A stretch of DNA of 64,000 bases from Escherichia coli (lineage in GTDB: Bacteria; Pseudomonadota; Gammaproteobacteria; Enterobacterales; Enterobacteriaceae), in NCBI RefSeq assembly GCF_024223415.1, contig NZ_CP100500.1. One strand, given 5' to 3'. Position numbers and translations under genes: made by a program. Under the pieces are notes generated by a model, which was not told where the DNA came from, did no database searches, and saw only the letters and a list, made by a program, of their open reading frames with translations. The number at the start of each line of letters is the position of its first letter. The stretch's first letter is position 1. This document shows positions 7,847-8,159 of the stretch, piece by piece.

Positions 7847-7858
7847 AAGTATGCACAC

Positions 7859-7886
7859 GGGCAGCACGACGCTGCCCGATTGCTTT
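7859..7886 (+). terminator. probable terminator downstream of dapD
   Basis: Hairpin gggcagc-acgac-gctgccc followed by a T-containing tract (T-run interrupted). Confidence 0.45.
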
Positions 7887-8159
7887 CTGGTTCAGAATAA
7901 TTCGTCCTACTCATTCTTCCTCCCCCTTTTTTAAATACTTTTTCATCTTGTTTCGGACTGTCATGTAATTCGCAAAACGAAGATAAATGTGCTAATCCAT
8001 CCCATGGAATATCGCCACAATAAAGCAGGTAATTTTTTGATTTTTACGCCATGATAGAAGTCTGGAAGAAAAAGGCTTTCTGCGATCACAGTCGAGCCGG
8101 GCGGGCCAGGCCAAATGCTAAAATAAGCACAATTTACTGACTCATTTTGAGGTAACGCT

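Follow-up and report, generated by a model that had tools for sequence, protein, structure and literature searches.

YaeI is a dispensable phosphodiesterase, and yaeI is an accessory gene. The protein matches PF00149 (Metallophos) and NF008460, has a Tat-type signal and is a distant relative of LpxG. A search of the literature on yaeI returned incidental mentions only. In Escherichia coli K-12 the gene order is dapD–yaeI–yaeH (b0166–b0164–b0163). A first-pass annotation of the DNA studied here had assigned to K-12 a co-oriented yaeI of about 0.8 kb between these neighbors, and this is correct; the gene occupies 813 bp of a 1027-bp spacer, both in a K-12-derived strain and in MG1655.

Two further arrangements of the locus are relevant. 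Typical Enterobacteriaceae (Citrobacter, Klebsiella, Enterobacter and others) have no yaeI, and their dapD and yaeH genes are adjacent and co-oriented. A full arrangement, dapD–yaeI–orf236–yaeH, has a second gene in the insert, where orf236 is the name given in this analysis to an uncharacterized 236-aa ORF.

We have analyzed the dapD–yaeH locus in a 64-kb stretch of E. coli DNA, termed the window. In its flanking genes, its dapD hairpin and the last 150 bp before yaeH it agrees with K-12 (98.7–100% identity). K-12 has yaeI and 12 codons of orf236, whereas in the window yaeI is absent, orf236 is represented by 16 codons, and there is a filler of 98 bp that K-12 lacks. The left edge, the 3' end of orf236 and the orf236–yaeH spacer of the full arrangement are each homologous to the window. 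The typical enterobacterial locus is like the window in its lack of yaeI, but its spacer has its own terminator, AAAAAGCGGG...CCCGCTTTTTTT, and its own region upstream of yaeH, and resembles that of the window only in the last ~10 bp before the yaeH ATG. The window carries a common yaeI-less structural allele, very likely derived from the yaeI–orf236 cassette by deletion of ~1.5 kb and independent of the K-12 type.

The dapD–yaeH interval of the window

The intergenic stretch between dapD and yaeH is 313 bp in length (7847-8159). The features of the locus are as follows.

7022-7846, plus strand: dapD coding sequence, left flank; 274 aa, protein 100% identical to K-12 DapD
7847-7891, plus strand: left edge, common to every yaeI-bearing allele; dapD terminator hairpin and start of the yaeI leader (nhmmer, blastn and terminator scan)
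7892-7989, no strand assigned: orphan filler, AT-rich, 98 bp, marker of the yaeI-less allele; similarity to yaeI and orf236 no greater than in shuffled controls
7990-8040, plus strand: 3' relic of orf236, 16 codons plus stop, reading C-stop-SIPWNIATIKQVIF-stop (tblastn, nhmmer and alignment)
8041-8159, plus strand: orf236–yaeH spacer, 119 bp, conserved, with the yaeH ribosome-binding site; common to all Escherichia alleles
8160-8546, plus strand: yaeH coding sequence, right flank; DUF3461, 128 aa, nucleotides 100% identical to K-12

The dapD stop at 7846 and the yaeH start at 8160 confirm the 313-bp separation without yaeI that the first-pass annotation had described. The interval 7847-8159 does not enclose any complete ORF of 30 aa or more. 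The ORFs that reach into it are one of 109 aa that extends from dapD in another frame, and two on the minus strand of 77 and 40 aa. Comparison of K-12 YaeI with the whole 64-kb window by tblastn gave a best match with E = 0.68 that lay outside the spacer, and the search for YaeI remnants that had been suggested for 7847-8159 gave nothing significant. Two hints of such remnants were considered and rejected. Short tblastn matches (WFELIR/WFRIIR and YSRFVPL/YSFFLPL) fall in different frames, and the other hint came from a permissive global alignment. In local alignments of the filler with five yaeI alleles, the observed scores were no better than those of shuffled sequence, being reached by 8-86 of 300 shuffles.

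Alignment of the window with MG1655 using megablast gave two gap-free blocks, 2364-7881 and 8010-18654, in agreement with the earlier statement that the rest of the region from rpsB to degP keeps K-12 spacing. Within the spacer, positions 1-40 match K-12 at 95% and positions 164-313 at 98.7% (blastn). Between these, positions 41-877 of the K-12 spacer (837 bp) correspond to positions 41-163 in the window (123 bp), and there is no alignment between them. The difference between the window and K-12 is a replacement, not a clean deletion.

A profile of five full inserts was compared with the spacer using nhmmer. It matched spacer positions 144-313 (E = 3e-58) and 2-45 (E = 1e-7), with no match between positions 45 and 144, i.e. 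7892-7989. Positions 46-1539 of the full insert profile (about 1.5 kb) are missing from the window, and there are 98 bp of unrelated sequence in their place. This filler includes a pyrimidine tract at ~7915-7931, the length of which differs between alleles. On the left edge, the dapD terminator hairpin is located at 7858-7878. The T run 3' of the hairpin is interrupted, being GATTGCTTTC in the window and GATTTTTTTG in K-12, and the hairpin with its broken T run was still scored as terminator-like in the terminator scan.

There are other differences from K-12 elsewhere in the window. K-12 is ~145 bp longer between pyrH and frr (458-462) and ~133 bp longer between rpsB and tsf (2353-2364), and the hemL–fhuB spacing is ~155 bp in K-12 compared with 32 bp in the window (18654-18687). 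These three length differences may be REP-type elements. Part of fhuA (22506-24327) and the whole yad fimbrial operon (34776-42272; yadN to yadC in K-12) are too diverged for megablast, and the panB/panC/rpnC region (42272-44215) is 92% identical to K-12.

The yaeI–orf236 cassette

The dapD–yaeH spacer of Escherichia sp. MOD1-EC7003 is 1.7 kb in length, with the additional 236-aa ORF between yaeI and yaeH. The full insert has the order dapD terminator, yaeI, orf236 and then a spacer of ~120 bp before yaeH. Intact dapD–yaeI–orf236–yaeH is present in MOD1-EC7003, E. coli GF43, several E. albertii, Pseudocitrobacter cyperus and one further enterobacterial contig. GF43 is the one genome among 5426 complete E. 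coli genomes with the full arrangement, and its orf236 is annotated as a hypothetical protein. A contig encoding the same protein as Enterobacter sp. kpr-6 has an orf236 homologue alone, without yaeI. In several genera orf236 is located upstream of yaeH, with or without yaeI (L015:3172-3882, L084:3341-4051, L088:4001-4708, L090:4001-4735 and L097:3501-4238 of the fetched loci).

The orf236 protein has no match in Pfam, NCBIfam or PADLOC, and only 21 relatives were found in a large protein collection. The family is rich in Cys and His, and its C-terminus, CEPVPWGIAxIKQVIF, is highly conserved. Values of dN/dS are 0.09-0.17 for yaeI and about 0.1-0.2 for orf236 where measurable, and because these are low we take both to be real genes where they are present. 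Identity between lineages is 55-65% for orf236 and 69-84% for YaeI, compared with 94-99% for DapD. The idea that yaeI and orf236 constitute a conserved functional pair or a defence system was rejected, neither protein having a PADLOC match. Evidence for an obligate pair was not found either: the two distant orf236 homologues examined do not adjoin a metallophosphoesterase, and one of them is located beside relaxase genes.

The locus in other Escherichia and in other genera

The outgroups were scanned using YaeH as query with one genome per species, returning 80 loci; E. fergusonii, E. marmotae, E. ruysiae (by name) and Salmonella are absent from those 80. More than 70 non-Escherichia species of Enterobacteriaceae have a dapD–yaeH spacing of 110-125 bp, without yaeI. 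The ~110-bp spacer occurs in Citrobacter, Klebsiella, Enterobacter, Raoultella, Kosakonia, Cedecea and other genera. It is well conserved among them, and unrelated to the Escherichia spacer.

Within Escherichia, yaeI is carried by E. albertii, E. whittamii, Escherichia sp. MOD1-EC7003 and strain SCPM-O-B-8794. The last is labeled E. coli, yet its dapD is just 93% identical to that of K-12. The short allele occurs in Escherichia sp. E1V33, where its identity to that of the window is 94.5%. Since the Escherichia forms share edges that the other genera lack, the absence of yaeI from the window is likely to be secondary, and not the primitive enterobacterial state.

Two outgroup loci have other contents. 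Enterobacter wuhouensis has a 762-aa minus-strand ORF at the dapD–yaeH site (L056:1461-3749), and in Enterobacter sp. BIGb0383 the spacer is 650 bp long and includes a small lipoprotein-like ORF (L064:3355-4000). The site seems tolerant of insertions.

The relics of orf236 in the window and in K-12

The sequence of the window at 7990-8040 is TGC TAA TCC ATC CCA TGG AAT ATC GCC ACA ATA AAG CAG GTA ATT TTT TGA. The second codon is an in-frame TAA, so that the translation is C-stop-SIPWNIATIKQVIF-stop, compared with CEPVPWGIARIKQVIF-stop in intact orf236. In the tblastn comparison with CEPVPWGIARIKQVIF, 11 of 16 residues are identical, with E = 6.6e-6 for the spacer alone and 0.006 for the whole window. 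The stop codon and the 119-bp spacer downstream are the same as those of intact orf236. An intact ORF of about 235-245 aa corresponding to orf236 is absent from the window; with 16 codons left, this is a relic and not a gene.

In K-12, the E. albertii type strain, E. whittamii and SCPM-O-B-8794, the alleles with yaeI alone have one homologous junction in common. This leaves a 12-codon in-frame relic of orf236, which is VNFITRIKQVIF-stop in K-12. The window keeps ~20 nt more of orf236 than any yaeI-only allele. Because its relic is the longer, descent of the window allele from the K-12 type is excluded. More than one structural form exists within E. albertii, and also within E. coli.

Distribution of the alleles among E. 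coli

We surveyed 5426 complete E. coli genomes, of which 5424 hold the dapD–yaeH locus. The window query aligned over at least 80% in 5416 of the 5426. Records with the same spacing gave a contiguous alignment with only dapD and yaeH annotated, and K-12-like records gave two pieces with yaeI annotated between them. yaeI is present as a single copy in 2084 of the 5426 genomes. The 98-bp filler is present in 3338 (61.5%), one copy each and always at dapD–yaeH, with 90-100% identity except for one genome at 82%. The two markers are mutually exclusive, and together account for 5422 of the 5424 genomes with the locus. The short allele is found in O157:H7, O104:H4, NU14 and IHE3034, and yaeI in K-12, BL21, O111:H11 and O145:H28. 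In a pan-genome study (PMC5422975) yaeI is listed with the orthologous groups that show enrichment in phylogroup A.

The yaeI-less form is the majority allele of E. coli, and K-12 has the minority state. The first-pass annotation had interpreted the locus as a strain-specific presence/absence difference in core sequence. Presence/absence in conserved syntenic sequence is what we observe, but with 3338 of the 5426 genomes and E1V33 having the short form it is not strain-specific. Nor can the K-12 arrangement serve as the reference state, as had been assumed, given that the yaeI-less allele is the majority and has the longer orf236 relic. It had been allowed that a spacing of ~0.3 kb might be found in K-12 or in most E. 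coli; this is not so for K-12 (1027 bp), but it is true of the majority of genomes.

The yaeI genes within E. coli are diverse. Identity to the K-12 gene is at least 99% for 1440 alleles, 95-99% for 308, 90-95% for 261 and 80-90% for 75, and the DNA flanking the diverse alleles is mostly 95-100% identical. This suggests that there are several deeply diverged yaeI haplotypes within E. coli. Rare variants among E. coli strains have further changes at the locus. EC0026B has a truncated yaeI, with an integrase-domain gene ~175 bp downstream (L086:2501-4436), strain 1506 has IS1 inside or adjoining yaeI, and in BS-04 the short allele is rearranged with a shorter spacer of 297 bp.

Origin of the short allele

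An accessory insert takes the place of the usual ~110-bp dapD–yaeH spacer in Escherichia and, here and there, in other Enterobacteriaceae, and the window has lost nearly all of it. We propose that two independent deletions from this insert generated the two common E. coli forms. In the K-12 type there would have been an internal loss of orf236, with yaeI and the 12-codon relic kept. In the window type ~1.5 kb would have been lost, comprising all of yaeI and all of orf236 except the last 16 codons, and the 98-bp filler gained. The probable direction, from cassette to relic, is based upon the truncated, stop-containing end of orf236 and the shared cassette edges, and not upon a rooted phylogeny. 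Both deletions are probably old, since the yaeI-only junction is common to four species-level lineages, and the short allele to E. coli and E1V33. The short allele may have become scattered over E. coli lineages as an ancient polymorphism, or by homologous recombination through the conserved flanks.

In view of the 98-bp filler, the event behind the short allele is not a simple deletion. A distant-mode search of the E. coli genomes found no second copy of the filler, and it has no match to any of the fetched dapD–yaeH loci on either strand. The first-pass annotation had anticipated short direct repeats at deletion endpoints. Only chance repeats of 8-9 nt were found, none of which flank the junctions, and palindromes are likewise at chance level only. 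No similarity to insertion sequences or integrases, and no mobile-element ends, were found at the junctions.

Other origins can be considered. K-12 has yaeI at this position and its flanks are 99-100% identical to the window, as would be expected if this strain alone had recently lost yaeI from a dapD–yaeI–yaeH arrangement of the K-12 kind. Yet 61.5% of complete genomes have the allele, as does another Escherichia species, there are 123 bp of non-K-12 sequence at the site, and there are no direct repeats at the endpoints. Moreover, the window retains orf236 sequence (TGCTAATCCATCCCATGGAA) that is missing from K-12-type alleles. We give a recent deletion almost no credence; it is already refuted by the allele frequency and by the longer orf236 relic. 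It is also conceivable that the short allele is ancestral in Escherichia, and that yaeI, with or without orf236, was inserted later in some lineages. The short allele is in the majority, the other Enterobacteriaceae are without yaeI, and the enrichment of yaeI in one phylogroup (PMC5422975) points the same way. But the supposedly empty site holds a piece of orf236, namely its 16 final codons, which are interrupted by a stop and line up with the stop and spacer of the intact gene, and to the left are the terminator and leader that belong to the cassette. Had the cassette been inserted later, there would be no truncated copy of one of its genes in alleles that never received it. In addition, the occurrence of yaeI in E. 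albertii, E. whittamii and other Escherichia, with dS = 0.5-0.9, indicates that its presence is old. An ancestral short allele is therefore improbable, if less so than a recent deletion.

A different kind of explanation is that the spacer encodes a functional replacement for yaeI, either a small protein on the minus strand (ATG at ~7916) or a small RNA. A purine tract resembling a Shine-Dalgarno sequence adjoins the minus-strand ATG, and there is a weak sroE-like match in Rfam (7842-7888, minus strand, E = 0.042). However, the length of the purine tract varies, and the substitutions in the 23-codon frame are mostly nonsynonymous (judged by eye from the alignment, not computed). The region is rearranged in BS-04, the sroE-like match is to the dapD terminator hairpin only, and no promoter-like site was found. 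We regard a functional replacement for yaeI as very unlikely, on a par with a recent deletion. Derivation of the short allele from the two-gene cassette is the reading that we adopt.

RNA features and the region upstream of yaeH

The minus-strand 23-codon ORF with its Shine-Dalgarno-like tract was rejected as a gene, as it is not conserved as coding sequence. A search of the spacer against Rfam 15 gave sroE as the sole match, on the terminator hairpin, with 21 bits against a gathering score of 51. The promoter scan found no consensus sigma-70 site in the spacer.

In comparisons of eight short alleles and of nine Escherichia sequences, 8041-8159 shows almost no variation. The Escherichia species that share this segment differ in dapD and yaeH by 0.15-0.45 synonymous substitutions per site. 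The predicted RNA fold of this segment is no better than that of shuffled sequences (z = 0.14). On the basis of this sequence conservation it is likely that 8041-8159 includes a conserved regulatory element for yaeH, and the yaeH promoter is presumably located within it. A cell with the short allele would lack the YaeI phosphodiesterase. Expression of the flanking genes is probably unaffected, because the allele still has the dapD hairpin and the conserved sequence in front of yaeH.

Discussion

The dapD–yaeH spacer has been seen in five structural forms. There may be a full yaeI–orf236 insert, yaeI without intact orf236, orf236 without yaeI, or just a relic, and the fifth form is the primitive empty spacer. 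Those with cassette sequence are found repeatedly in different Escherichia species, and other genera also have the full form and the one with orf236 alone. One interpretation is that this spacer is an old multi-allelic cassette site, whose alleles have been maintained over the long term by balancing or frequency-dependent selection on the function of YaeI and orf236. We put this forward tentatively, and consider it rather unlikely. The persistence of several alleles, and the greater divergence of the cassette compared with its flanks, are equally compatible with recombination and neutral decay. If selection does maintain the cassette alleles, the function could concern the cell envelope or phage, for example.

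The absence of yaeI is an ordinary accessory-gene polymorphism, already visible in the public annotation of thousands of genomes and in the pan-genome literature. As K-12 is in the minority at this locus, the absence of a gene that K-12 has says little about novelty. The yaeI-less allele would be neither the primitive empty site nor a derivative of K-12, but a secondary loss from a two-gene insert. The second gene of that insert, orf236, represents an uncharacterized, fast-diverging family tied to dapD–yaeH, with relics in essentially all E. coli.
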